DNA of 64,000 nt from Candidatus Poribacteria bacterium (GTDB lineage Bacteria; Poribacteria; WGA-4E; PCPOR2b). The stretch's first letter is position 1. Each line of letters opens with the position of its first letter. Under the pieces are notes generated by a model. That model worked only from the letters and a program-made list of their open reading frames with translations. It did no database searches and had not been told where the DNA came from. Below, in pieces: positions 18,428 to 40,255 of the stretch. Made by a program: the position numbers and the translations under genes. The stretch is from contig OZ220744.1 in assembly GCA_965116925.1 (NCBI GenBank), forward strand, positions 1,600,001 through 1,664,000, given 5' to 3'.

Positions 18428-20383
18428 TCATTCCAGTAAAATCATCTTCCGGGTATCGGTTTCTTTTTGGAATTTTAGGGTGTAGAAATATGTGCCGCTT
18501 GCTGCGCGCTCACCATCAAAATTGCGCCCATTCCAATAAGCGGCGCGATGTTTTTCAGAATAATCTCCAGCAGCGCGTTTTCCAAGTTCAAGGAGGTTAA
18601 TTAAACGTCCATTAGAGTTGTAAATCCGAATGGTTACTTGACCGGAGGATGCCAGCTTAAAGGGTATCCACGTCTCTGGATTGAACGGGTTCGGATAATT
18701 TTGTAAAAGTTTGCCTCGTTTTAGTTTGCCCAAAGTTGTCGGTAGCAGATCGGAGGTTGGCTGAACCGCAACGGGTTGGGGAAACCCTGTACCCCCAAAC
18801 TGATTAAACAATCTATCATAAGCGGCTTGTGCACGAATAACCCCGTAACCGGCGATATTATCGGGCTTGTTCGCTTGCGAAGCTGTGGTGCGAAGTATGT
18901 TGACTATATCCTGTACAGTTGCTAGGGGGAAGGCTTCCATCAGTAGAGCGATGCCGCCGGCAGCAAGCGGTGCCGAAGCGGAGGTGCCGATATAAAAATT
19001 GAAAAACGCTCCATGTGTGGTTGGATCGATGGTGGTGACGCGTTCACCCAGTGCCATCAAATCTGGTTTAATCCGCCCGTCGAAGGTGGGACCTCGTGAG
19101 CTGAAAGGTAACACCTGTCCGTCGCGGTCTACAGCACCAATAGCAAGAACGTCAAATCCATCGGCGGGAGGGGTGATTCGTCCCGGCAGTCCGAACGTAT
19201 CGCTCGGTGGTTGAGCCCCCAGATTTCCCGCAGCGATAACGACAGGGATCCCTTTTTGAACGGCAAGGTTCGCGGCAATCGTAACTTTTGAGGTTTTTCC
19301 ATCTAAGTCTGCGAAACGATACCATTCAAAATAGCCGAGCGAACTGCTTACTACATCTACCCCCATCTCTTCGAGCCATTCAAGTCCTTCAACCCACCAA
19401 TCCTCTTCGATTTGCCGCTCAAACACGATACCACGCCGCGAAACTACCTCTGTTTTTCCAAGGAGGTAGCGGGCACGGGGCGCGATACCGATGAGTTGCC
19501 CCGGTGCATCGCCAGCGAGGATACTCAACACCGCCGAACCGTGGTCATCTTGATCTGGATCATCCTGATCTACCTCATCGGCGGTATTGGCATCGTCATT
19601 GATAAAATCGTATTGGGCGATAATATCCACACGCTCAAGCGCGGTATGTTCCAGATTGAACCCTGTATCGAGTAGTCCGATAACAATGTCCTCACCGAGA
19701 AAGCCTTCTTGGTGTAGGAAGTCCGCCTGAATTTGTGCAATTTGTGTCTTAGCGTTCCCGTAGTCCAAAACCTTGGCAGCGGAAGGGGCACTCGGTGGTA
19801 ACGAACCGCTGATGGGGATCTCAAAAGGCATTGTGTACTGATGAATAGGATCTATCGCGCGGATATAAGGCAGGCGAGCGATTTCACGAATCTCCTGACC
19901 TGTTGCCTCTAGTCCAATGCCGTTTAGCCATCGACTCTTGCTGCGGAGTTTCCCTCCCAATCGAAGCACCGCCTCAATATAGTGGGGTTCGATGGGCAAA
20001 TCTGTAAAATCCGGACGGCTGAGTTGCGCCCGGAGCTCGCGGCGATGCTTCGCTCTATTGGACATCTGGGCTTGATATTGATCTATCGCTCTGCGTTGAT
20101 CGGACGTTGTCGAAAATCCCTTGTCGGCAAAGAGCACCCATACTTTTAGTGTTTCATTAGGGGTATGGAAACGAATAGATGGGGAAATTTTGAGGTTTTG
20201 GTTGGGGGTCGATATTGCTGGAGGGGCTGCTGCGAATGAGATGAATATGATAGTAGTACAAACCAATCGACAAAGCAGGGTTCGCGGTTTAGAGGAGCAT
20301 CCTAATAACGGGTTCCTCTGTCCCAACGGTATCAATTCTTTTATCGAAAGATTTCGGGAACGTGGAGATGCAGTTAGAGTCAT
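18428..20383 (-). CDS. Secreted S8 subtilisin-like peptidase with C-terminal FlgD/T9SS-like module
   Basis: Triad LLDTG, DDHG, GTSASAP; AAGN; C-terminal LLQNYPNPFNPETWIPF...YWNGRN...SGTYFY. Start uncertain. Confidence 0.9.
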   Translation of the reverse strand: MTLTASPRSRNLSIKELIPLGQRNPLLGCSSKPRTLLCRLVCTTIIFISFAAAPPAISTPNQNLKISPSIRFHTPNETLKVWVLFADKGFSTTSDQRRAIDQYQAQMSNRAKHRRELRAQLSRPDFTDLPIEPHYIEAVLRLGGKLRSKSRWLNGIGLEATGQEIREIARLPYIRAIDPIHQYTMPFEIPISGSLPPSAPSAAKVLDYGNAKTQIAQIQADFLHQEGFLGEDIVIGLLDTGFNLEHTALERVDIIAQYDFINDDANTADEVDQDDPDQDDHGSAVLSILAGDAPGQLIGIAPRARYLLGKTEVVSRRGIVFERQIEEDWWVEGLEWLEEMGVDVVSSSLGYFEWYRFADLDGKTSKVTIAANLAVQKGIPVVIAAGNLGAQPPSDTFGLPGRITPPADGFDVLAIGAVDRDGQVLPFSSRGPTFDGRIKPDLMALGERVTTIDPTTHGAFFNFYIGTSASAPLAAGGIALLMEAFPLATVQDIVNILRTTASQANKPDNIAGYGVIRAQAAYDRLFNQFGGTGFPQPVAVQPTSDLLPTTLGKLKRGKLLQNYPNPFNPETWIPFKLASSGQVTIRIYNSNGRLINLLELGKRAAGDYSEKHRAAYWNGRNFDGERAASGTYFYTLKFQKETDTRKMILLE

Positions 20384-20449
20384 AAATTAGATTGTAGCAG
20401 CGTCGTGGCTCACCGTCAAGGGTAGATTTGTTTCTCCATGATTCTCTGA

Positions 20450-20478
20450 TTGACAGGAATAAGTATGTCCTTTATAAT
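20450..20478 (+). promoter_or_regulatory. Consensus sigma-70 promoter
   Basis: TTGACA-17 bp-TATAAT, exact. Confidence 0.7.
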
Positions 20479-20628
20479 GCGAATTAGCAAGCATTTCATT
20501 AATTGACTTTCTTCTTTTCGTCTAGCACAGAAAAGTTAAAAACCGGTATGATAACTTGGGAAAGTTTCAGGCTACTTAGGATTTTACAACCAATGCAGAC
20601 TAATTTTAGATTGATTAAAGAGCTTTTG

Positions 20629-22169
20629 ATGTATAGAAAGGAACACTTTATTTCAATTTTTGTCTTCCCAGTTTTGGTGACCTTACTTTTAGGTGCTTTC
20701 ACGCCGGCTTTTTCTGAGAATGGGGCAGAAACCGATGTAAGTTTCACACTGCAACTGCTCCATGCAGCAGACATGGAAGGGGATATTGAGGCACTTGACA
20801 ACGCCCCACGATTCTCATCGGTACTGAATGCACTTAAAGCCGAATTTGAAAATACTGTTATCATCGGAGCGGGCGATAGCTACATCCCTGGACCGTTTTC
20901 CGCAGCGGGTAATGACCAAAGCCTTCGCGATATCTTAGGGCGTGAAGGATCGGGCCGGGCGGACATTTTGATACTCAATGGAATGGGATTTATGGCGGCA
21001 GCACTCGGCAACCATGAATTTGACACAGGCACTGGTACACTCGCAGGGTTGATTCGGAATGATGGTAGAGGTTACGCCGGTACTGCGTTCCCACTCCTGA
21101 GTGCAAACTTGGATTTTAGTCTTGATAGCAACTTTGCAGATCTCGTTGTCGATGCAGGGCAGGAGGCAAGCACGATTCCAAACAGTATCACTAAGAGTGT
21201 GGTCATCACAACGTCTTCGGACGAAAAGATTGGTGTTGTTGGCATAACTACACCATGGCTCGGCAGTCTATCCAAGTCAGGAGATGTCGGGATTGCCCCT
21301 GAAGATCCAGATGATATTGTGGCATTGGCGGCGATCGTCCAAGAATCTGTTGATGCGTTGACGGCAACCGGGATAGACTCGGTGCGACGGTCGTCATCGA
21401 ATATGATCCATCAGTTAGTAGCTTTATCGGCTTTACAGAAAGCTCTTCTGGCGCGGGTTTCCCTGTTGAAGGTGGGAAGGGTTATATTATCAACGTCCCT
21501 AAATCAAAGGTGGTTAGATTTACCGGCCGTGCGTGGAAAAATAGCTCGACGACAGCTGCAGCTGCGCCTACCCCTACCCAGACACCCAAAGTATGGGCGT
21601 TAGTTCTTCACGCGCAACTTGAAGGGATCGATGGCGTAACGTTGACCGTTCACAACCGGCGCACTGGCGTTTCGGAGATTGTTGATTTGAACGGATCGCA
21701 CGCTGTCTGGGCAGATATGAACCGTCGAACGGTTGCTTCCATCGGCGACACCCTAACGATTGAAGTACGCGATGCAAGTAGCGAACTGATTCGCATTCTG
21801 CATCACGAAATTGATGCAAAAGATATCCGTCGAGCGTTCACGGAACTGATATTGACTATAGAAGACCTTCAGCCGAGACAGACCGCGCTGCTCGCCAATT
21901 ATCCAAATCCGTTCAATCCGGAAACTTGGATACCGTACCAACTAGCAAATGACACAGATGCTAGGATTCGGATATACTCGCAGAAGGGAGAAGTCGTTCG
22001 ATCGCTTGACCTCGGGTTTCAGCGTGCGGGATATTATGTTGGCAAGTCACGCGCTGCTTACTGGGATGGTCGTAACGGTTCTGGTGAGTTGCTGGCTTCA
22101 GGTGTTTACTTTTATCAGCTGATGACTCCTGAATCAACGGCAACCCGAAAGCTGGTTATTGTGAAGTAA
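20629..22169 (+). pseudogene. Secreted 5'-nucleotidase/metallophosphoesterase disrupted by an out-of-frame internal deletion; 3' part is the FlgD-like C-terminal module
   Basis: LQLLHAADME, AGD, LGNHEFD, LSAN, IGVVG motifs end abruptly at ...ATGID (about 21378). The next bases read in another frame LGATVVIEYD...GFPVEGGKGYIIN...ANYPNPFNPETWIPY, homologous to the tail of 43159-44988. Confidence 0.75.
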
Positions 22170-25700: not shown

Positions 25701-26933
25701 ATGCCAACCGAAAAGAACAAGATTGAAGCTGAAGTCAATCGCCACGATGATTTACAAACCCGTCTATCGTTCCTGAAGTTTAATCAGCAGGATGAAGAAC
25801 ATCTCAAAGCACTCGCAGAGGTTTTCGCTCCCCACATTCCCAATATTGTACACAGTTTCTATCAACACCTACAAGGATTTGAAGAAACCGCTTCGCTGCT
25901 GACTGACGAACTGATTACGAAGCGGTTATTAGATGTACAACAACGCTATCTTGAGAGATTGACAGAAGGAAATTATGACCAACAGTATGCGGCAGAACGT
26001 TCGCAAATTGGGCATACCCACAATCGCGTTGGACTGGAACCGAGATGGTATATTGGGACATACAATTTGTATATCCATCTCTTAGTTCCGTTGATATGTG
26101 AGGCGTACCGCGATGAACCAGAGCGTAGCCAGAATGCCATCCTCGCTCTGACGAAGGTGCTCATGTTGGATATGCAACTGGCAATCGAAGCATATATTGA
26201 GCGGCAACAGTTAGAAGCACAGATTATTCAATCCGAGAGATTCGCTGCAATTGGGCAACTGGCAGCCCGGGTCGCTCATGAACTTCGCAACCCGCTATCC
26301 TCGGTAGAATTGAATTTAGATTTGCTTGCCGATGAAGTCGCCGATGGTCCAGAGATGGATGTCGCGGAGGCGAACGACCTGCTTAAATCTATTCACAATG
26401 AAGTTGAACGGTTGGCTAACATTGTTTCAGAATATCTGGTGTTTGCAAGATTGCCTCGTTTTGAATTTGAGCACGAATCTCTCAATACTGTCGTACAGGC
26501 ATTTTGCGACTTTATCGAACCACAGTTACAGCAAGCCCAAATCACGTTTTCGATAGAACTCGCTGAGAACTTGCCTTTCACCTTATTGGATGCCGAACAG
26601 ATCCAATGTGTTTTGCATAACCTGTTCAAAAACGCCATCGAAGCCATGCCTTCAGGTGGCGAATTTTCGATCCAAACTAGTGTTAGATCTTCTCGGATTG
26701 TGCTGCGAATTTCCGACACAGGCGTGGGCATCCCGCTACCAGATCAGAAACGGATCTTTGATCCCTTTTTCACTACCAAGAAAGGGGGAACCGGTTTAGG
26801 CCTTTCGCTTGCTGGGGAAATCATCAAACATCATCAGGGGACAATTCTTTGTAGGAGTGTTGTTGATCAAGGTACAGAGTTTATCATTACGTTTCCAATA
26901 CGGGACGAGGAATTGAACGAAAGTGGAACATAG
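25701..26933 (+). CDS. Globin-coupled (protoglobin/HemAT-type) sensor histidine kinase
   Basis: N-terminal sensor globin (SFYQHL, IGHTHNRVGLEPRWYIGTY), H-box AHELRNPL, NLFKNAIEA, DTGVGI, FDPFFTTK, GTGLGL; no TM segment. Confidence 0.9.
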   Translation: MPTEKNKIEAEVNRHDDLQTRLSFLKFNQQDEEHLKALAEVFAPHIPNIVHSFYQHLQGFEETASLLTDELITKRLLDVQQRYLERLTEGNYDQQYAAERSQIGHTHNRVGLEPRWYIGTYNLYIHLLVPLICEAYRDEPERSQNAILALTKVLMLDMQLAIEAYIERQQLEAQIIQSERFAAIGQLAARVAHELRNPLSSVELNLDLLADEVADGPEMDVAEANDLLKSIHNEVERLANIVSEYLVFARLPRFEFEHESLNTVVQAFCDFIEPQLQQAQITFSIELAENLPFTLLDAEQIQCVLHNLFKNAIEAMPSGGEFSIQTSVRSSRIVLRISDTGVGIPLPDQKRIFDPFFTTKKGGTGLGLSLAGEIIKHHQGTILCRSVVDQGTEFIITFPIRDEELNESGT

Positions 26934-26988
26934 AACAAGCCGCTACCTAAATCACCAAAACACATCACACACTGGAGGGGCGATAATC

Positions 26989-28353
26989 ATGAATTCAGAT
27001 AAATTAGTTCTCGTGGTCGATGATGATGCGCCTATTCGAGATTCCCTTGAAAGGATCCTAAAGCGTGGCGGATACACTATCCAAACTGCCGCGGATGGCG
27101 AATCCGCTTTAGAATTGATTCGTCGGTACCCGGTCAATCTGATTCTCGCCGATTTGAGAATGCCCAACATGGACGGATTACAGTTGCTCAAAGCTGCCAA
27201 ATTACTTTCCCCCGAAATCGAGGTCATTCTGATGACAGCCTATGGTGAAGTGGATACAGCTGTTGAAGCGATGCGAGCCGGTGCGTTTCACTTTATTCAA
27301 AAACCGTTGAAGCGTTCTGAAATTTTGCTCACCATCGCCCGTGCTCTTGAAAAACAGATGTTGGCTATAGAAGTCCAATCCCTACGGAAACAGATAGACG
27401 CCGAATATTCTTTGGAGAACATCATCGGAAAAAGTCCCGCTATGCGTCAATTGATTACAAAGGTGCAACAGGTTGCATCAAGCACTGCTAGCGTCCTAAT
27501 CACCGGTGAAAGTGGGACAGGCAAAGAAGTTTTTGCTAACGCAATCCATGCTTTAAGCCCAAGAATAGATAAACCGATGATTAAAGTGAATTGCGGCGCG
27601 TTCCCCGATACCCTGTTGGAATCCGAGCTTTTTGGATACGAAAGAGGGGCATTCACAGACGCTAAAGTAAGCAAGCCTGGACGTTTTGAACTCGCGGATG
27701 GAGGAACACTCTTTTTAGATGAAATTGGCGAAATGCCTAAGCCACTACAAGTGAAGTTGTTACGGGTTCTGCAAGATGGCAAATTTGAGCGACTCGGTGG
27801 GACCAAATCCCTCAGTGTGGATGTGCGCTTAATCGCGGCTACAAACAAGGATTTGGCGGCGGAAATCGAGGCAGGTAATTTTCGGGATGACCTGTTCTAT
27901 CGGCTCAATGTGATTACCCTCGAACTCCCACCACTACGCTCTCGCAGGGAGGATATTCCACTGCTTGTAGACTGTTTCGTAAAAAAATATAGTGAAAAAA
28001 CAGAGAAACCGATCCGAGGTATTTCTCGTCAAGCGTTGGAGGCACTTGACGACTATCATTGGCCGGGCAATATTCGCGAGCTGGAAAACGCAATTGAACA
28101 AGCAGTGGTGTTAACACAATCTAATGACATCGAACAGATAGATCTTCCGGTATCAATTCACAAGGGGGATAAGGCCCCGGCTTATTCTGAGGATCTGAAG
28201 TCGATTGTTGTGCCTTTAGGAACACCTATGGAAGATATTGAACGAAAAGTGATAGCCGAGGTGCTTTCGATGACTTCTGGCGACAAGGAATTGGCAGCGA
28301 AGTTGCTCCAGATTTCGTCACGCACTATCTACCGAAAACTGGAAAAGAATTAG
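26989..28353 (+). CDS. NtrC-family sigma-54-dependent response regulator (REC-AAA+-HTH)
   Basis: VVDDD, DLRMP, GESGTGKE, ESELFG, GAFTDA, LFLDEIGE, FRDDLFYRLNV, WPGNIREL, Fis-type HTH; start at MNSDK (RBS GGAGG). Confidence 0.95.
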   Translation: MNSDKLVLVVDDDAPIRDSLERILKRGGYTIQTAADGESALELIRRYPVNLILADLRMPNMDGLQLLKAAKLLSPEIEVILMTAYGEVDTAVEAMRAGAFHFIQKPLKRSEILLTIARALEKQMLAIEVQSLRKQIDAEYSLENIIGKSPAMRQLITKVQQVASSTASVLITGESGTGKEVFANAIHALSPRIDKPMIKVNCGAFPDTLLESELFGYERGAFTDAKVSKPGRFELADGGTLFLDEIGEMPKPLQVKLLRVLQDGKFERLGGTKSLSVDVRLIAATNKDLAAEIEAGNFRDDLFYRLNVITLELPPLRSRREDIPLLVDCFVKKYSEKTEKPIRGISRQALEALDDYHWPGNIRELENAIEQAVVLTQSNDIEQIDLPVSIHKGDKAPAYSEDLKSIVVPLGTPMEDIERKVIAEVLSMTSGDKELAAKLLQISSRTIYRKLEKN

Positions 28354-30096: not shown

Positions 30097-30142
30097 CTGT
30101 TGATAATGTGAAGCTGAAACGTGCAGACAACTGGTTAAATTG

Positions 30143-31549
30143 ATGCCGATAGCGAAACAAGCAGAATTTCAAGTTGGCTATGTTTGGATGGCTTTGGCGA
30201 TTGCCATCTTTGGTGGATTCGCGCTAGCTGGTCATCTCGCCTTCGTCATGGGCTTTGATCGACCGTTGGGCGATGGTTTTGCAAGCCTTATTCAGATTCA
30301 CGGACATCTACAATTGGTCGGTTGGGCGGGGTTATTTATTATCGGTATCAGTCTTCACTTCATTCCACGTCTATCAAGCGTTCCCATTTCACACCCCCAA
30401 TGGATTCCCCGTCTGCTTTGGCTCATCGGAATCGGTTTGCTACTACGATTTATTTCACACTCGATTCTACCCTACCTTGATAACGGCTTCCTTTTTATCT
30501 TCTTAAGTTGGATAACCGCCGCCTCCGGATTGCTTGAATGGTATGGGGTGCTGATCTACTTGGCACTGTTAGTAGGTACAACCTTCGGTATGTCTAAGAC
30601 GGATCGAAGACCGCCCTTGATGGCTGTCCGCCCATACTTTGGGATGATGATGGTGGGTTTTCTGCTCTACGCCACAATTCATGCCGTATTGCTGTTACTG
30701 ATGGCGTGGCGAGGGAACATTGTCGTGGGTCAAGCGTGGAATGAGATTTCGATTCACATCTTCATTGGTCTGGTGCTGTTGCCCGTTGCATTCGGGTTTT
30801 CAATTCGGATGCTTCCGCTTTATCTTCGGCTTCCAGTCGCAGATTGGCACGTTCGGCGTGTGGCATACGTTTATCTCATTGGATTTCTGTGCCAGATCAG
30901 GGAAATCCTTCCGATAGATTTCCTTAGCCATATAGAGGAGTACATCTCCAGCGTGGGAAGGTTGGTGAAAGCCAGCATCATCTTATACGTCGTCTGGAAA
31001 CTGGATGTTCTGACGCGCAGACAAGAGCCGCCGATTGCCCATCGCGATTTGCAGCCATCGCCGGATCGCCGAGCGACACGTGGGACTAGCCCGGACCACG
31101 GAGCGTATGGTCGGTTCGAGTGGCACATCTACGCTGCATACGGTTGGCTTGTATTCGGCGCACTTGCTGAGATGCTCATTGGCGGTTTTGGGATTTTTCG
31201 GCTCCCGCTTGCGATTAGTAGCGATGTAATTCGACACATCTATCTGCTCGGATTCATTACCAATCTTATCATGGGTATGGCGGTTCGGATGGTTCCCGGC
31301 TTTCTGAGAAAACGGCGCATTGCAAGCACAAGGTTGATTGATGGAACATTCTGGTTAACCAACGTCGCCGTTGTTGGAAGGGTAGTGCCCTTACTTCTAT
31401 CGTTGGTGCTATTCGATGTGCCTGAATCCATTGACATAATCGCTCAAGCCGCGTTTGGACTGTCAGGAATTTTAGGGCTACTGGCAACAATCTGCCTTGC
31501 TATCAACCTGTGGAAAACAGCGCGTGGTATGCCTACACAACCTGTGTAG
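30143..31549 (+). CDS. NnrS-like multi-pass membrane protein
   Basis: ~12 TM segments; IHGHLQLVGW...HFIPR and RHIYLLGF...GMAVRMVP motifs. Confidence 0.65.
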   Translation: MPIAKQAEFQVGYVWMALAIAIFGGFALAGHLAFVMGFDRPLGDGFASLIQIHGHLQLVGWAGLFIIGISLHFIPRLSSVPISHPQWIPRLLWLIGIGLLLRFISHSILPYLDNGFLFIFLSWITAASGLLEWYGVLIYLALLVGTTFGMSKTDRRPPLMAVRPYFGMMMVGFLLYATIHAVLLLLMAWRGNIVVGQAWNEISIHIFIGLVLLPVAFGFSIRMLPLYLRLPVADWHVRRVAYVYLIGFLCQIREILPIDFLSHIEEYISSVGRLVKASIILYVVWKLDVLTRRQEPPIAHRDLQPSPDRRATRGTSPDHGAYGRFEWHIYAAYGWLVFGALAEMLIGGFGIFRLPLAISSDVIRHIYLLGFITNLIMGMAVRMVPGFLRKRRIASTRLIDGTFWLTNVAVVGRVVPLLLSLVLFDVPESIDIIAQAAFGLSGILGLLATICLAINLWKTARGMPTQPV

Positions 31550-32694: not shown

Positions 32695-34689
32695 ATGCAA
32701 CACACGATTCGGCGACACTCGCTTTCAATGCTAGGACTTGCAATCTTCGGAGTTATTCTATACTTGGGCAGCCACCAGTCTCTACATGCACAACTCCCCG
32801 CTGATGCGATGCGTATTGTACAGGAACGCAGTTTAACCCCTGATGATATCAAGGCTGCCTTGGCGACCTATACCCCCACCGGCAGACATGATGAATATGT
32901 GATGTTCTCTTCCGGAGGGCACAGTGGTCAGGTCATCGCTGTCGGCCTGCCATCAATGCGTATCCTAAAGGTTATTGCGGTCTTTACGCCCGACCCGTGG
33001 CAAGGTTACGGTTATGGAGTGAAGGATGCACCGTTGGACGCCTCAAGCGAAGGGGTGACCGTTGAGGGACAACCCCTCACTTGGGCAGATACGCACCATC
33101 CTGCATTAAGTGAAACTGCAGGGGACTACGATGGCGAGTATCTGTTTATCAACGATAAAGCCAACGGTCGGATTGCCGTTATTGATTTGAGAGATTTTGA
33201 GACTAAACAGATTGTCAAGAACCCAATCTTCCTCAACGATCACGGCGCGACGATGGTGACTCCAGACACGGAGTATGTGGTGGAAGGTTCACAGTACGCC
33301 ATGCCGTTAGGTAATGAATATGCTCCTATTGCCGATTATAAAGAAAAGTATCGAGGGTTGATAACCTTCTGGAAGTTTGACCGTAGCAAAGGTCGCATTG
33401 TCAAAGATCAGTCGTTTGGAGTAGAACTTCCACCTTACTGGCAGGACCTCGCAGATGCTGGTAAGGTAGCGAGTGATGGCTGGGTGTTTTGTGGTTCATT
33501 TAATTCTGAACTAGCAACCGGCGGCATCGAAAGTGGAAATCCTCCCTTTGAGGCAGGCACGGCTGAACGGGATATGGATTATCTGCATCTTATCAACTGG
33601 CGTAAAGCCGAGGCAGCCTTTAAGGCTGGTAAGGTTGAGAAAATTAAGGGTTTCCCGGTGATTACAATTGAGACTGCGGTGGCGGAAGGTATCCTTTATC
33701 TGACGCCTGAACCCAAAAGTCCGCACGGTGTCGATGTTAGTCCTGGTGGAAAATACATTATTGTTTCAGGCAAACTGGATCCGCATGTCACAGTGTATCA
33801 CATTGACAAGATTAAGAAGGCCATCACCGACAAAGACTATGAAGGTGTAGATGAGTACGGTGTGCCAATCCTACGGTTTGACGCGGTCAAGGAAGCACAG
33901 ATAGAGGTTGGATTGGGACCGCTTCACACTCAATTCGACAATAAAGGATATGCCTATACCAGTCTGTTTCTTGATAGTGCGGTTGCACGGTGGACATTGG
34001 GACCGGATGCGAAATATAAAGCACCAGAGCGTTCATGGCGACTTATCCAGCAGCTACCCGTCCATTACAACATAGGCCATCTAGTGACTGCGGAGGGCGA
34101 TACAGTTGAACCGGATGGGAAGTATCTTGTCGCTCTGAACAAATGGGCGGTAGACCGCTTCCTGAATGTGGGACCATTACTTCCACAGAATCTGCAACTG
34201 GTTGACATAGCCCCAGAAGCCGATGGAATGGGATTGCTCTATGACATGCCGCTCGGTATCGGTGAACCGCACTATGCACAGATTATTAAAGCGGATAAAC
34301 TGAAGGCATGGGAGGTGTATCCTGAAGTTGGCTGGGATACCATTAAACAAGAGAAACATCCGAAAGCAGCACTCAAAGGTTCAATTAATCGGAATGGTGA
34401 CACCGTGGAAGTCTTCATGACCGCTATTCGGAGTCACTACGAACCTGAGATTGTAGAGGTCAACAAGGGTGATCGCGTGATACTAAATCTGACCAATCTT
34501 GAACGCACTTACGATGCGACGCACGGTTTCGCCCTGCCCGGTTATAATATCACCTCAAGCATTGAGGCTGGCGAAACGGTCACGCTCGATTTTGTTGCAG
34601 ATAAGGAAGGGGTCTATTCCTTCTACTGCACCGAGTTCTGTTCAGCACTTCATCTGGAGATGGCAGGATATTTCCTTGTCAAGCCGTGA
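32695..34689 (+). CDS. nosZ: Sec-dependent (clade II) nitrous-oxide reductase
   Basis: SSGGHSGQ...PSMR, CuZ ligands DTHH, NDH, SPHG, GPLH, IGH, EPH; CuA HGF...YCTEFCSALHLEM; Sec-type signal; no C-terminal CxxCH. Confidence 0.97.
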   Translation: MQHTIRRHSLSMLGLAIFGVILYLGSHQSLHAQLPADAMRIVQERSLTPDDIKAALATYTPTGRHDEYVMFSSGGHSGQVIAVGLPSMRILKVIAVFTPDPWQGYGYGVKDAPLDASSEGVTVEGQPLTWADTHHPALSETAGDYDGEYLFINDKANGRIAVIDLRDFETKQIVKNPIFLNDHGATMVTPDTEYVVEGSQYAMPLGNEYAPIADYKEKYRGLITFWKFDRSKGRIVKDQSFGVELPPYWQDLADAGKVASDGWVFCGSFNSELATGGIESGNPPFEAGTAERDMDYLHLINWRKAEAAFKAGKVEKIKGFPVITIETAVAEGILYLTPEPKSPHGVDVSPGGKYIIVSGKLDPHVTVYHIDKIKKAITDKDYEGVDEYGVPILRFDAVKEAQIEVGLGPLHTQFDNKGYAYTSLFLDSAVARWTLGPDAKYKAPERSWRLIQQLPVHYNIGHLVTAEGDTVEPDGKYLVALNKWAVDRFLNVGPLLPQNLQLVDIAPEADGMGLLYDMPLGIGEPHYAQIIKADKLKAWEVYPEVGWDTIKQEKHPKAALKGSINRNGDTVEVFMTAIRSHYEPEIVEVNKGDRVILNLTNLERTYDATHGFALPGYNITSSIEAGETVTLDFVADKEGVYSFYCTEFCSALHLEMAGYFLVKP

Positions 34690-37600
34690 ATGAATCAATG
34701 AACCAATTCTTAAAATTTAAACGCACCCGGCGCGAGTGGCTGGTAAGTGCGCTACTAATTGTTGCTAGTATCCTCCTGCTCGTTTCGTTGCTGTTTCCCT
34801 ACTGGCGGGTAGACCTTGAAGCGGGAATTTATCCGAAAGGATTAGCACTCGAACTTCGTCCCTACCGTCTTGATGGAGATATCAAGGAAATCGATGAACT
34901 GAACCACTACATCGGTATGCGAGAGTTGGAGTCGGCGGGGAAACTGGAGCGCACAATTGCTGTTCCGGCGATCATCATTGCGGGGTTATGCCTGCTGCTT
35001 GCGGCGTTTATTCCCCGCAAATGGTCAATATGGCTGACACTTCCCGGCTTAGTGTTTCCGGTTATTTTTCTAGGTGAGTTGTTCTGGTGGTTGGCGGATA
35101 GCGGACTCAATCTTGATCCAAAGGCACCGCTCAACCAATCAATTAAACCGTTTATCCCACCCATCTTCGGGGAAGGACGGATCGCGCAGTTCAACGCACA
35201 CGCCTTTTTCCAGGTTGGATTCTACCTTGCGCTGCTTGCGGCGGTGCTATCAAGGACAGCATTCTATCTGAAGAGGCCGGGATGGTTGGTCAAAGGGTTG
35301 ATGATTGACGCCTCGGTGTTGTTACTTATTTCACTGTTTTTCCCTTACTGGCGGGTAGATTTTGAGGTGCGAAAATTTCCGAAAGGTGCTATACTTCAAA
35401 TTCGGCCAGACCGTATCGAAGGAAACATCCGAGAAGTGAACAAACTGAACCGCGATATCGGAATGCGGAACATCGAATCGGCAGGTCAATTTGAACGGAA
35501 GATCGCCATTCCGTCTATTTTAATTATGGCATTGGGTTTGTTGGGTTCTGTCTTTGTACCGCGAAAATGGTCATCTTGGCTTGCGACCCCCGCCTTAATC
35601 TTTCCAATCATCTTTGTCGGTGCACTTTTTTGGTGGCTGCGGGATAGCGGTCTCAATCTCGATCCCGAAGTCGCACTCTACCCGGACATCGAACCCTTTA
35701 TCCCTCCTGTTGTTGGCACAGAAACAGTCAAATCGGTCACCACGATCTCGACATTTCAACTTGGGTTTTATCTTACCATTTTGACCGCTTTGCTGTCTAT
35801 CTGTGCACTTATGCTCAAAAGATACCGAGCTTTTCACCCTAAACAAACGGTGATGGGAGTTGTGCTGCTCATATCTTTATTCTCAGCTGCATCAACTTTG
35901 AACGCTGCAACGTTGACCGTTGATGAAAATTCCAGTATTGGCGATACGGTAAAACGTGCCACTCAGGGCGATACAATTGTGGTGCAAGGTGGAGTTCATC
36001 ATGAGCGGTTCATCGTAGATAAATCCGTAACCCTCCGCGGTGAAAATGGAGCAATTATTGACGGAGGTGCGGTTGGTAGTGTCATCACAATCCGTGCGCC
36101 GGCGGTGGTTGTCCGTGGATTCACAATTCGCAACACCGGTGACCGGCTTTCTGAAGGCGATGCCGGTATCATGATCAAAAAGGCAAGAGGAGCAATCATT
36201 GAGGAGAACCGATTTGAAGACGCTCTATTCGGAGTTCAAGTGCGGAATGCACCGGACAGCATTGTCCGAAACAACATCTTCCACGGCAAGGACCTCGATG
36301 TTGGGCGCCGGGGAGATTTGATTCGCGTCTGGTATAGTAGCGGTGCGGTGGTTGAAGATAACCGTGTTTTTGATGGTCGGGATGTTGTCATCTGGTATTC
36401 AAAAAATATCACGGTGCGTAGGAATGAGGTACGCAACGGGCGTTATGGGATTCACTTCATGTATTGCGACGATGCAACGATTGAAGATAATCGCCTGATT
36501 GGTAACTCGGTCGGGGTTTATTTGATGTATAGCTACCGTCTGCGGCTTCAGAAAAATTGGGTGATAGCTAACCGCGGTGCTAGCGGTTACGGGATTGGTC
36601 AGAAAGATATGTATGACGGGCTTATCGCGGACAATTTCGTTGCTGATAATCGGGCGGGAATGTTCATGGATAACTCAACGAACACTTTTCGCAATAACCT
36701 AATCGCTTTTAATGATTTTGGAATGCTTGCACTCCCCTCCGCCCGGAAGAACACCTTTGCTAAGAATAGCTTTGTTGACAATGGCGAACAGGTGGCTATT
36801 GAGGGGCAGGGGCGGCTTGGCACTAACCAATGGGCAGGTAATTACTGGAGTGATTACAGCGGTTATGATGCAGATGGGGATGGCATCGGGGATATGCCGT
36901 ATCAGTCAGTACATCTGTTTGAGAAGCTAACCGAGCAGCATCGCGCGTTACGGATTTTCACCTATAGTCCATCGGTGCAGGCACTCGATTTTGCCTCCCG
37001 ACTCTTTCCTGTTTTTACGCCCCAACCTAAGCTGGTGGATGACACCCCGCGTATGCGTCCTGTGATGCCCGATCTCAAAGCACCGAAAGGAGTGCTTTCA
37101 TCAGCATGGTTGTTGGGTGCTTCGATGTTATTCCTGTCCGCTCTGTCTATTTCTGGACACTTAAAAAAATGGTTAAATCCTATTGCGTCTCGCATTCCAT
37201 CCTTTACTTCTAACTTATCAGATAGGACAAAAGACTCAACATACGAGATGCAACATAAATCATCGGAGACGCAAGCAGTCCCTATCATATCCGTCGATAA
37301 TCTGATCAAACGTTTCGGTAAAACAACCGCAGTGGAACGGTTAAGTTTCGATATATCATCCGGAGAGACGGTAGCGTTATGGGGACCGAACGGTGCAGGT
37401 AAAACAACTGCGCTGCGCTGCTTACTGGGGGTATTGCCTTTTGATGGAACGATAACAGTCGGAGGCAATTCGTCGCGCAGCGAAAGTAAAATGGTTCGCC
37501 AGCAGATTGGTTACGTTCCACAGGAGGTTCGGCTCCACAGTGACTTGACGGTGAAAGAAACAATATCGTTTTACGCCCGCTTGCGACGTGTCTCTGAAGA

Positions 37601-38153
37601 TCGCTGGACAACCCTGATGGCTGAGTGGGATTTAACCGAGATTGCGGACAAACGGGTTGGAGATCTGTCGGGCGGCATGAGGCAGCGATTGGCGCTGGCA
37701 ATTGCCCTGCTGTCAGACCCGCCGATCCTGTTGTTGGACGAACCGACGAGTAATCTGGATGTCCATACCCGTCATGAGTTCTGGATGGCACTTGAAGATC
37801 TCAAGAAAGCCGGCAAGACTTTAATCTTCTGTACCCATAGGCTCGATGAAATTTTCAGACTGGCAGACCGTGTTATTGTGATAGATAGGGGAAAGAAGAT
37901 TGCTGAAGGTCCTCCAACACACCTTAATGGCCATCTATCAAGAGATGTGGTGTTGCACCTGTCGATCCCTGAATCGTTCCATGAAACAGCAGCAGACCTA
38001 CTTGAGGGACAAGGTTTCCCCACTAAATGTAACGGCGTGAAGATCTCAGTACAAGCACCGTATGATAGGAAAGCTGAACCGTTTCAAGTATTAGCGGAAT
38101 CTGCTATCCCGATCGACGATTTTGAATTAGCCGATAATCAAGATGAGGAATAA
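34686..38153 (+). CDS. nosD: Fusion protein NosB-NosB'-NosD-TM-NosF
   Basis: Two NosB-like membrane units (PYWRVD...PKG, LNHYIGM/LNRDIGM, LDP...PFIPP); NosD beta-helix (RYGIHFMY, GVYLMYS, GNYWSDY.GYD.DGDGIGD.PY); hydrophobic helix; ABC ATPase (GPNGAGKTT, LSGGM, LLLDEP). Start at 34686 (GTG) or 34698. Confidence 0.88.
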   Translation: MNESMNQFLKFKRTRREWLVSALLIVASILLLVSLLFPYWRVDLEAGIYPKGLALELRPYRLDGDIKEIDELNHYIGMRELESAGKLERTIAVPAIIIAGLCLLLAAFIPRKWSIWLTLPGLVFPVIFLGELFWWLADSGLNLDPKAPLNQSIKPFIPPIFGEGRIAQFNAHAFFQVGFYLALLAAVLSRTAFYLKRPGWLVKGLMIDASVLLLISLFFPYWRVDFEVRKFPKGAILQIRPDRIEGNIREVNKLNRDIGMRNIESAGQFERKIAIPSILIMALGLLGSVFVPRKWSSWLATPALIFPIIFVGALFWWLRDSGLNLDPEVALYPDIEPFIPPVVGTETVKSVTTISTFQLGFYLTILTALLSICALMLKRYRAFHPKQTVMGVVLLISLFSAASTLNAATLTVDENSSIGDTVKRATQGDTIVVQGGVHHERFIVDKSVTLRGENGAIIDGGAVGSVITIRAPAVVVRGFTIRNTGDRLSEGDAGIMIKKARGAIIEENRFEDALFGVQVRNAPDSIVRNNIFHGKDLDVGRRGDLIRVWYSSGAVVEDNRVFDGRDVVIWYSKNITVRRNEVRNGRYGIHFMYCDDATIEDNRLIGNSVGVYLMYSYRLRLQKNWVIANRGASGYGIGQKDMYDGLIADNFVADNRAGMFMDNSTNTFRNNLIAFNDFGMLALPSARKNTFAKNSFVDNGEQVAIEGQGRLGTNQWAGNYWSDYSGYDADGDGIGDMPYQSVHLFEKLTEQHRALRIFTYSPSVQALDFASRLFPVFTPQPKLVDDTPRMRPVMPDLKAPKGVLSSAWLLGASMLFLSALSISGHLKKWLNPIASRIPSFTSNLSDRTKDSTYEMQHKSSETQAVPIISVDNLIKRFGKTTAVERLSFDISSGETVALWGPNGAGKTTALRCLLGVLPFDGTITVGGNSSRSESKMVRQQIGYVPQEVRLHSDLTVKETISFYARLRRVSEDRWTTLMAEWDLTEIADKRVGDLSGGMRQRLALAIALLSDPPILLLDEPTSNLDVHTRHEFWMALEDLKKAGKTLIFCTHRLDEIFRLADRVIVIDRGKKIAEGPPTHLNGHLSRDVVLHLSIPESFHETAADLLEGQGFPTKCNGVKISVQAPYDRKAEPFQVLAESAIPIDDFELADNQDEE

Positions 38154-39481: not shown

Positions 39482-40255
39482 ATGTTACTCAAGCGAATCT
39501 TATACATCGGACTGGTATTAATTTCGGTTCTATTCACTGTAACTCTCGTCCAGTTGGGTTGGACGACCGAAGAGAAAAAAGTTGACCCTTCTATATCTCA
39601 AACTGAAGCGACACCTGATACCGCTACCATCATTGGCACGGTGAAATTTGAAGGGGAGGCCCCTTTTCGGCGTGCAATTAATTTCGGTGCCAATTTGGAT
39701 TGTAAACATCTACACGATGGCAAAGTCCATTACGAGGATGTCGTCATCAATCAGAATGATACCCTCAAGGATACGCTTGTTTATGTCAGAGGAAAACCGA
39801 AGGGAGACCATAAGCCATCGACAAAACCTATTGTGGTCGATCAGGTAGGTTGTATCTTTATTCCACACGTTGCAGCGGTGATGGTGGGTCAGCCGATGGA
39901 ATTTCTTAATAGCGATCCGGCACTTCACAATATTCGAACTGAATCGAAAAAACAGCGACCATTTAATATCTCCCAGCCGAATAAAGGCATGAAATACACG
40001 CACCAATTTGAGGCAGCTGAAATAGGGATTCCGCTCCGGTGCGATGTTCATCACTGGATGGTCGCTTACGCGCATGTCTTGTCGCATCCGTTCTATGCCG
40101 TTACTGGCGAGAAAGGCACTTTTAAGATTCAGGGCCTTGCGCCGCGTACTTACAACATTGAGGCGTGGCACAGTAAGTTAGGAGCACAGAAACAGAAGAT
40201 TACGTTGGCAGCGGGGGAAACTAAGACGGTGGATTTTGTATTTACTAGCGAGTGA
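39482..40255 (+). CDS. Exported cupredoxin-like protein with carboxypeptidase-regulatory-like domain
   Basis: N-terminal signal/anchor, DQVGCIFIPH, NSDPALHN, CDVHHWM (His...Cys-x2-His-x2-Met), GTFKIQGL...Y.IEAWH. Confidence 0.7.
   Translation: MLLKRILYIGLVLISVLFTVTLVQLGWTTEEKKVDPSISQTEATPDTATIIGTVKFEGEAPFRRAINFGANLDCKHLHDGKVHYEDVVINQNDTLKDTLVYVRGKPKGDHKPSTKPIVVDQVGCIFIPHVAAVMVGQPMEFLNSDPALHNIRTESKKQRPFNISQPNKGMKYTHQFEAAEIGIPLRCDVHHWMVAYAHVLSHPFYAVTGEKGTFKIQGLAPRTYNIEAWHSKLGAQKQKITLAAGETKTVDFVFTSE

Follow-up and report, generated by a model that had tools for sequence, protein, structure and literature searches.

A conserved reading frame joins NosB, NosD and NosF in the clade II nos cluster of a Poribacteria-like bacterium

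The window analysed here, 64,000 nucleotides of contig OZ220744.1 from a Candidatus Poribacteria genome, contains a clade II nos cluster in which a single stop-free frame of 1155 codons (34686–38153, forward strand) sits between nosZ, the gene of nitrous-oxide reductase, and nosY–nosL. The frame encodes NosB, a degenerate second copy of it (NosB'), a signal-peptide-like helix, NosD, one membrane helix, a linker and NosF, in this order. The fusion is real and under selection, and its bearer is a Poribacteria-like bacterium associated with sponges. Its GTG at 34686 overlaps the stop codon of nosZ (TGA, 34687–34689); the fused product probably has 1151 residues and begins at the first in-frame ATG (34698), which is residue 5 of the frame. 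Residues are numbered from the GTG throughout. An initial annotation made from the sequence had described this frame, and all coordinates and features that it named are correct.

Reality and conservation of the fusion

The initial annotation had proposed mapping reads across the junctions at ~35800 and ~37200. Contigs from sequencing runs of two different studies, X1 and X2, cover both junctions with 0 differences: the B'/D junction in X1 (record 3, 35636–36367) and X2 (record 17, 35660–36367), and the junction of NosD, transmembrane (TM) helix and NosF in X1 (record 7, 36944–37865) and X2 (record 18, 36923–37304). NosD is present in 12 of the 176 species genomes of the phylum and belongs to an open frame of 1150–1213 codons in 11 of these 12. 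In a large protein collection, NosD and ABC_tran stand in one protein in all 120 relatives among the matches listed (42–98% identity, 768–1281 residues), and 115 of these also carry the NosB motif LNHYIGM. NCBI and JGI name such fused proteins simply NosD, the best named relative among the matches listed being a Candidatus Poribacteria record with 62% identity. The genome from which the window derives (a single 6.47-Mb contig, 99% complete) has no second NosD over the family cut-off. Those of the best-covering runs that have an organism label are labelled sponge metagenome, and the gene may thus contribute to N2O turnover in sponges.

The twelfth genome of the phylum with NosD, G042, belongs to the same genus and has a frame of 790 codons; its locus does not align to anything upstream of window position 35723. 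At its locus (L083, G042:C57:2500-8500) nosZ is lost and a beta-propeller-like open reading frame (ORF) of 315 residues lies in its place, a single, frameshifted NosB unit has arisen by recombination of units 1 and 2, and NosD–TM–NosF is still open (784 residues). Lacking nosZ and having a frameshifted NosB region, G042 was rejected as a natural split form and is regarded as a decayed locus. Two database proteins, P0026 (768 residues) and P0122 (203 residues), also resembled natural split forms. In run X3, which bears the sponge metagenome label, a 15-kb contig of a closely related strain skips 361 nt within NosD (35935–36297) and lacks 5 nt at 37408, just after the Walker A motif of NosF; a contig from RNA library X10 shares the 5-nt loss. 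The two deletions combined would put most of NosD out of frame, which makes this a broken allele in a sister population.

Domains and membrane topology of the fused protein

The two N-terminal units (residues 15–195 and 197–377) share 55% identity over 181 residues without gaps (E 7e-74), and each has four hydrophobic helices. Unit 1 carries LNHYIGM at residues 72–78, the H74 and M78 of which do not vary across 20 fused relatives. In unit 2 the motif reads LNRDIGM, its His and Tyr being lost, and most of the family-invariant residues are retained; in the other double-unit proteins read in the alignment, the His position of unit 2 is R, S or Q. Domain conservation, measured as mean identity among divergent orthologues, amounts to 73% for unit 1, 65% for unit 2 and 69% for NosD. 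Because unit 2 is conserved at 65% among divergent orthologues, it is a maintained but site-degenerate copy.

NosB is described as a polytopic membrane protein with 4 or 6 TM helices (PMC11388526), coded beside clade II nosZ and ahead of nosD (PMC9697520, PMC11388526), with two conserved stretches, LNHYIGM and YGHN, as its signatures (PMC9697520), and it is reported to be essential for clade II N2O respiration (PMC9697520). No family model of Pfam or NCBIfam matches residues 1–400. Unit 1 has four TM helices, lies between nosZ and nosD and carries LNHYIGM; at the place of YGHN both units read SGLN, the His not being kept in this lineage. Stand-alone NosB-like homologues (~220 residues, 38–53% identity) have GHS (as in P0146–P0148) or GLN at that place, so that the His of the YGHN stretch is not universal. 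Judged by these features, the N-terminal units are NosB. They resemble the stand-alone NosB of Wolinella succinogenes (Hein et al, 2017, as cited in PMC9697520 and PMC11388526), to which we liken them by its description, in forming a protein with four TM helices encoded after clade II nosZ and before nosD; unlike it, NosB is tandem-duplicated here, with a second copy that lacks the His and Tyr of the motif, and is co-translated with NosD–NosF.

An AlphaFold model of unit 1 (pLDDT 87.4, pTM 0.83) has four membrane helices, a periplasmic sheet formed by loops 1 and 3, and a short helix that bears H74 and M78; the conserved residues concentrate in the periplasmic parts. A model of the tandem (406 residues, pLDDT 75.7, pTM 0.76) points to a definite packing of the two units, and a fold search with it returned single-unit matches only and no fold for the pair. 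With four membrane helices and an extracellular sheet from loops 1 and 3, the claudin/TARP/MP20 tetraspan fold resembles the unit 1 model and came out on top in the fold searches: Foldseek matched it to TARP gamma-5 (E 5.5e-4, TMq 0.57) and claudin-19 (E 5.8e-4), and VIA-align matched it to TARP gamma-7 (Z 10.6, root-mean-square deviation 3.4, 148 aligned residues) and claudin-4 (Z 10.4, 157 aligned), within a range of Z 10.0–10.6 over 135–157 residues for matches of this type. Plain four-helix bundles also reach Z ~10, over 94–101 residues, and Z below ~13 may mean only a common arrangement for helical proteins; at a sequence identity of 11–16% we report a resemblance and claim no homology. 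A protein-atlas search with residues 1–200 gave no lead, returning unnamed clusters and one “Cytochrome C family protein” without a common Pfam family (scores 0.92–0.93).

The initial annotation had presumed NosB to be an electron-transfer scaffold. As no family model matches residues 1–400, and hence no cofactor-binding domain was found there, this presumption is unsupported; the conserved residues sit in periplasmic loops. That NosB shares a chain with NosD–NosF in this frame, and with NosL in other organisms, points to a role in assembling the copper centre rather than in electron transfer. A complex prediction for NosD (residues 408–800) with NosB unit 1 gave no answer (score 0.00 against a mark of 0.32, controls not run) and is neutral on binding.

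NosD matches TIGR04247 with 413.8 bits (cut-off 300) over residues 420–791, corresponding to model positions 3–377 of 377, and aligns to the solved P. stutzeri NosD, chain 7o0y_A (residues 435–791 to chain residues 49–421, E 4.9e-34), in the expected setting of nosZ upstream and nosY and nosL downstream. The putative Cu-binding motifs IHFMY and YLMY picked out by the initial annotation are indeed present, as GIHFMY and VYLMYS, and the columns of H590/M592 and M614 are invariant in 20 relatives. The C-terminal ATPase matches ABC_tran over residues 884–1022 and the solved P. stutzeri NosF, chain 7o0y_B, over residues 868–1082 (E 2.1e-36), with ABCA transporters scoring higher; among the 25 NCBIfam families listed there is no NosF-specific model, and we assign the ATPase as NosF from its gene context. 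Its motifs are invariant in the alignment (Walker A G900–T908, Q946, LSGGM 994–998, LLLDEP 1015–1020 and H1051).

The TM helix and linker that connect NosD to NosF have together a mean identity of 32% among orthologues. We surveyed 79 related loci from species genomes of many phyla, in which the helix after NosD reaches a hydropathy of at least 1.7 (17-residue Kyte–Doolittle window) in 17 of the 18 frames that fuse NosD to NosF, the eighteenth, Candidatus Poribacteria record L004, having 1.68. By the same measure, 35 of the 58 frames with NosD alone end in such a helix. Chloroflexota, Phycisphaerae and Acidimicrobiia are among the groups with anchored stand-alone proteins; no C-terminal helix is present in the NosD frames of Gemmatimonadota, most Bacteroidota and Alphaproteobacteria, nor in the solved NosD of P. 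stutzeri (436 residues), which ends just past the aligned core. Predicted membrane-anchored NosD is thus widespread among the fetched relatives, and given an anchored NosD with a short cytoplasmic tail, the loss of a stop codon alone would suffice to join NosF.

By hydropathy the fused protein has ten hydrophobic helices, four within residues 19–195, four within 201–377, one at 389–407 and one at 802–820. The short loops predicted to be cytoplasmic contain 5/2/2/2/4 Lys and Arg and 2/0/0/0/0 Asp and Glu, and HLKKW follows helix 10. Under the positive-inside rule, these charges place both ends of NosB inside, NosD outside and NosF inside, which bears out the outside/inside topology that the initial annotation had called coherent.

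Predicted cleavage before NosD and the assembly of the copper-insertion machine

The helix ahead of NosD (residues 378–407) has the build of a Sec signal peptide with a signal peptidase I site, consisting of an n-region (KRYRAFHPKQT), an h-region (VMGVVLLISLF) with a hydrophobic core of 11 residues and a c-region (SAASTLNA) followed by Ala. The string MLKRYRAF, at which the initial annotation had set its beginning, does start at 35811. We collected the residues around the predicted site from 121 fused proteins, of which 108 could be anchored and 106 aligned at the site, leaving 102 distinct contexts. Position -1 is small in 100 of these (Ala 88, Ser 6, Gly 6) and position -3 is small or aliphatic in all 102 (Leu 33, Ala 32, Ser 13, Val 11, Gly 7, Thr 3, Ile 3), whereas position -2 holds 20 different residues and Pro, Ser, Gly and Thr abound at positions -4 to -6. 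No other part of the protein is as poorly conserved as this segment taken in full (27%), which also has low confidence in the tandem model (10-residue pLDDT blocks 56, 58 and 36). The spacing between the cut site and the last charged residue was dropped as a measure of h-region length, as R, K, E or D inside the c-region confound it.

Since positions -1 and -3 are kept while the rest of the helix drifts, the precursor is probably cut after Ala407, freeing NosB–B' from NosD–TM–NosF; selection on these two positions is the best available evidence for the cut. Its calculated products have 45.5 and 83.0 kDa, and NosD–TM–NosF would start with ATLTVDEN and yield the semi-tryptic N-terminal peptide ATLTVDENSSIGDTVK. 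The pattern over 102 contexts backs the TLNA/A site that the initial annotation had suggested. Of the “self-processing polyprotein” proposed there, the processing agrees with the conserved cut pattern; the “self” does not hold, the putative cutter being the host's signal peptidase I. If the cut occurs, the proposed tether of NosB to the Cu/S maturation machine is lost as well, NosB being no longer joined to NosD. A conserved internal signal peptidase site would be a rare case of a bacterial membrane polyprotein. The cytochrome b–c1 precursor FbcH of Bradyrhizobium, which we take to be cut at an internal signal peptide by signal peptidase, likewise joins a membrane protein and an exported protein that keeps its signal peptide in one chain; the proteins are unrelated to those studied here, where the cleavage is predicted.

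Taken together, we consider it probable that a selected fusion, a cut by signal peptidase I after Ala407 and a covalent NosD–TM–NosF that dimerises with NosY account for the locus. One precursor of ~128 kDa would be inserted co-translationally with ten membrane passes, in the order of the eight helices of the NosB–NosB' tandem, NosD's own Sec signal peptide, the exported NosD beta-helix, the stop-transfer helix and cytoplasmic NosF. Signal peptidase I would most likely cut it into NosB–NosB' (~45 kDa, with the signal helix left at its C-terminus) and NosD–TM–NosF (~83 kDa), which would stay covalent. ABC ATPases act as dimers. Two copies of NosD–TM–NosF would accordingly dimerise via NosF and pair with the NosY of the next gene, giving, we infer, a 2:2:2 stoichiometry. 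The resulting ABC machine with two tethered NosD would pass Cu(I) from the lipoprotein NosL to apo-NosZ, and the second NosD might dock, idle or serve the second CuZ site of the NosZ dimer. The main effect of the fusion would be equimolar, co-located synthesis.

This arrangement can be compared with NosDFY(–NosL) of P. stutzeri (clade I; PDB 7O0Y and related entries), which likewise combines a NosD beta-helix with a NosF ATPase and has NosY and NosL encoded alongside, and presumably does the same job of ATP-driven Cu(I) transfer from NosL via NosD to NosZ (PMC13685413). In P. stutzeri three separate genes give NosD1F2Y2, described as NosDF2Y2 with one NosD that “protrudes into the periplasm” (PMC13685413), and NosD has no membrane helix. 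Here, in contrast, NosD has a membrane helix at its C-terminus and continues covalently into NosF, and NosB–NosB' stand in the same chain. From the covalent fusion of NosD to NosF, two NosD per NosF dimer follow logically, in conflict with the only solved stoichiometry, which turns the fusion into a testable prediction on clade II enzyme maturation. A precedent for joining NosB to the exported copper-handling protein that comes after it in a clade II nos cluster is “NosB-L” of Dyadobacter fermentans and flavobacteria (PMC9697520), where NosB with LNHYIGM is joined at its C-terminus to NosL; the partner here is NosD–NosF instead, NosB is duplicated, and SGLN replaces YGHN.

Several points weigh against the proposed scheme. 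Signal peptidase I accepts Leu at -3, as found here, but other residues suit it better. To our knowledge, an internal signal peptide cleaved behind eight membrane helices is rarely documented in bacteria. The long persistence of B–D fusions throughout entire lineages is not required if the cut makes them neutral, and the tether could have been selected instead. RNA support is weak: library X10 contributes four short contigs from one metatranscriptome and a related strain, and as DNA is possible in such libraries, transcription is not shown by them. Finally, the complex as published has one NosD per F2Y2 (PMC13685413), hence the second tethered NosD has no known docking place.

A bolder version, for this branch of clade II, is a tentative possibility. 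It holds that a symmetric (NosD–TM–NosF)2–NosY2 would let each NosD arm serve one CuZ site of the NosZ homodimer, with NosB as a claudin-like tetraspan auxiliary that is dimeric (here a fused pseudo-dimer of an active and an inactive unit) and whose periplasmic H74/M78 face would hand copper or the apo-enzyme to NosD/NosL, the polyprotein being split by signal peptidase I. If true, a symmetric machine with two NosD would overturn the 1:2:2 model as a general one and give NosB a role in maturation instead of electron transfer. Natural single-chain forms, with fewer genes and fixed ratios, are convenient for cryo-electron microscopy and for moving N2O reduction into other hosts.

We regard it as unlikely, though the strongest of the alternatives, that no cut occurs and that helix 9 is an uncleaved signal-anchor. 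One 128-kDa chain would then carry NosB–NosB' at the N-terminus of NosD and NosF at its C-terminus, making NosB a built-in subunit of the copper-insertion machine. The persistence of B–D–F fusions over 42–98% identity and in several phyla favours such a chain, and the NosB–NosL fusion in Bacteroidota, as described in PMC9697520, fits a physical partnership with copper-handling proteins. The -1/-3 pattern, kept while the remainder of the helix drifts, speaks against it, as do the shortness of the hydrophobic core (~11 residues) for a span held stably in the membrane, the low model confidence of the signal helix and the first NosD strand, which begins only a few residues past the helix. In a right-handed beta-helix the two termini are at opposite ends, so that anchoring both ends of NosD in the membrane fits poorly with a NosD described as protruding into the periplasm (PMC13685413).

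Quite improbable is a second alternative, according to which internal translation initiation, for example at Met376 or Met390, gives separate products and the long frame is a by-product of lost stop codons. It draws on the in-frame Met codons just ahead of and within the signal helix, on the decayed relative that keeps NosD–F as an open frame of its own, on the gene caller having begun the close relative P0026 at MGVVLL, and on the six B–D and three D–F junctions elsewhere that are one in-frame stop away from fusion. However, fused orthologues do not keep Met376 and Met390 (L or Y stands there in P0010, P0013, P0017 and others), which argues against this route to separate products; ribosomes starting at 34698 would still read through, so that the long product would be made anyway; and 11 of the 12 phylum genomes have no stop between the parts. 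An error of assembly or sequencing, or the decay of a pseudogene, is scarcely credible as the source of the frame. Related strains do carry broken alleles (the 361 and 5 nt missing in X3), and G042 has lost nosZ and has a frameshifted, recombined NosB region; but two studies are identical over both junctions, the same frame recurs in 11 of 12 genomes, every catalytic motif is complete and does not vary, and purifying selection acts on unit 2 and on each of the other domains (65–73% identity among divergent orthologues).

Fusion states in other phyla and neighbouring genes

Across the 79 surveyed loci, NosD is fused to NosF in 18, NosB to NosD in seven, and all three are fused in four, one of which, an Armatimonadota record (L042, 2079–5909, 1277 codons), adds NosY. 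Relatives of ~1280 residues (P0081 and P0092) have NosY at the C-terminus and thus combine NosB–NosD–NosF–NosY in one frame. In three Gemmatimonadaceae records (L057, L066 and L069) NosB and NosD are fused (618–669 codons), NosF is separate and NosD has no C-terminal membrane helix. Single-NosB fusions of other phyla (B–D–F, D–F, B–D and B–D–F–Y) share the module order, the internal signal peptide and the helix after NosD with the frame studied here, which differs by its doubled NosB. The doubled form was found only in the lineage of the window, namely in 25 of the 120 relatives among the matches listed, in the 11 phylum genomes with the long frame and in L004.

Nine split junctions (six B–D and three D–F) are one in-frame stop away from fusion. 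Loci with such single stops, in which nosB, nosD and/or nosF lie in the same frame, are L007, L009, L010, L023, L024, L028 and L074. Recoding or readthrough as a general explanation of these junctions was rejected, the stops being a mixture of TGA, TAG and TAA.

In the open full-text literature, subscription papers being beyond reach, no paper describing a B–D–F or D–F fusion was found, only the NosB–NosL fusion. The impression of the initial annotation that the architecture had not been described therefore stands as far as this literature goes; it is not a rare one, as more than 100 database proteins have it. The present analysis adds the conservation counts at the cleavage site, a survey of the phylum, a check at read level and the finding that many stand-alone NosD among the fetched relatives have the anchor without being fused. 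The features of the cluster are collected in Table 1.

Table 1. Features of the nos cluster and of the fused frame (window positions)
Feature	Position	Strand	Evidence or remark
nosZ, clade II (Sec-type) nitrous-oxide reductase, 664 residues	32695..34689	+	TIGR04246 839.7 bits (cut-off 625); nos_propeller and cupredoxin domains
Fused nosB–nosB'–nosD–nosF frame	34686..38153	+	GTG 34686, probable start ATG 34698
NosB unit 1, residues 15–195	34728..35270	+	Four TM helices and periplasmic sheet; LNHYIGM at residues 72–78
NosB' unit 2, residues 197–377	35274..35816	+	Tandem duplicate; motif degenerated to LNRDIGM
Internal signal peptide of NosD (predicted), residues 378–407	35817..35906	+	n-h-c build; predicted cut between 35906 and 35907
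NosD periplasmic beta-helix, residues 408–791	35907..37058	+	TIGR04247; aligns to 7o0y_A
Stop-transfer membrane helix after NosD, residues 802–820	37089..37145	+	Hydropathy; HLKKW follows
Variable cytoplasmic linker, residues 821–866	37146..37283	+	Poorly conserved, length varies in alignment
NosF ABC ATPase, residues 867–1155 and stop codon	37284..38153	+	ABC_tran 117.7 bits
nosY, ABC-2 type permease, 278 residues	38157..38993	+	ABC2_membrane_2 97.5 bits
nosL, copper chaperone lipoprotein, 157 residues	38990..39463	+	Pfam NosL 43.7 bits; LIMTGC lipobox-like site

Directly after nosL, on the same strand, follows an ORF of 257 residues with a carboxypeptidase-regulatory-like (CarboxypepD_reg) domain (39482–40255, forward strand). 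About 1.1 kb upstream of nosZ, an ORF of 469 residues (30140–31549, forward strand) matches heme-copper oxidase subunit I only weakly (COX1, 36.1 bits) and could be a divergent NO-reductase-like oxidase. Further upstream (25701–28353, forward strand) lie genes for a histidine kinase with a protoglobin domain and for a sigma-54 response regulator, and after them genes for Usp and CYTH proteins; the kinase and regulator pair are candidate gas-sensing regulators of nos expression. Upstream of these, at 18428–22169, a subtilase and a small protein are encoded, one on either strand, both of which end in C-terminal sorting domains of type IX secretion (Por_Secre_tail).

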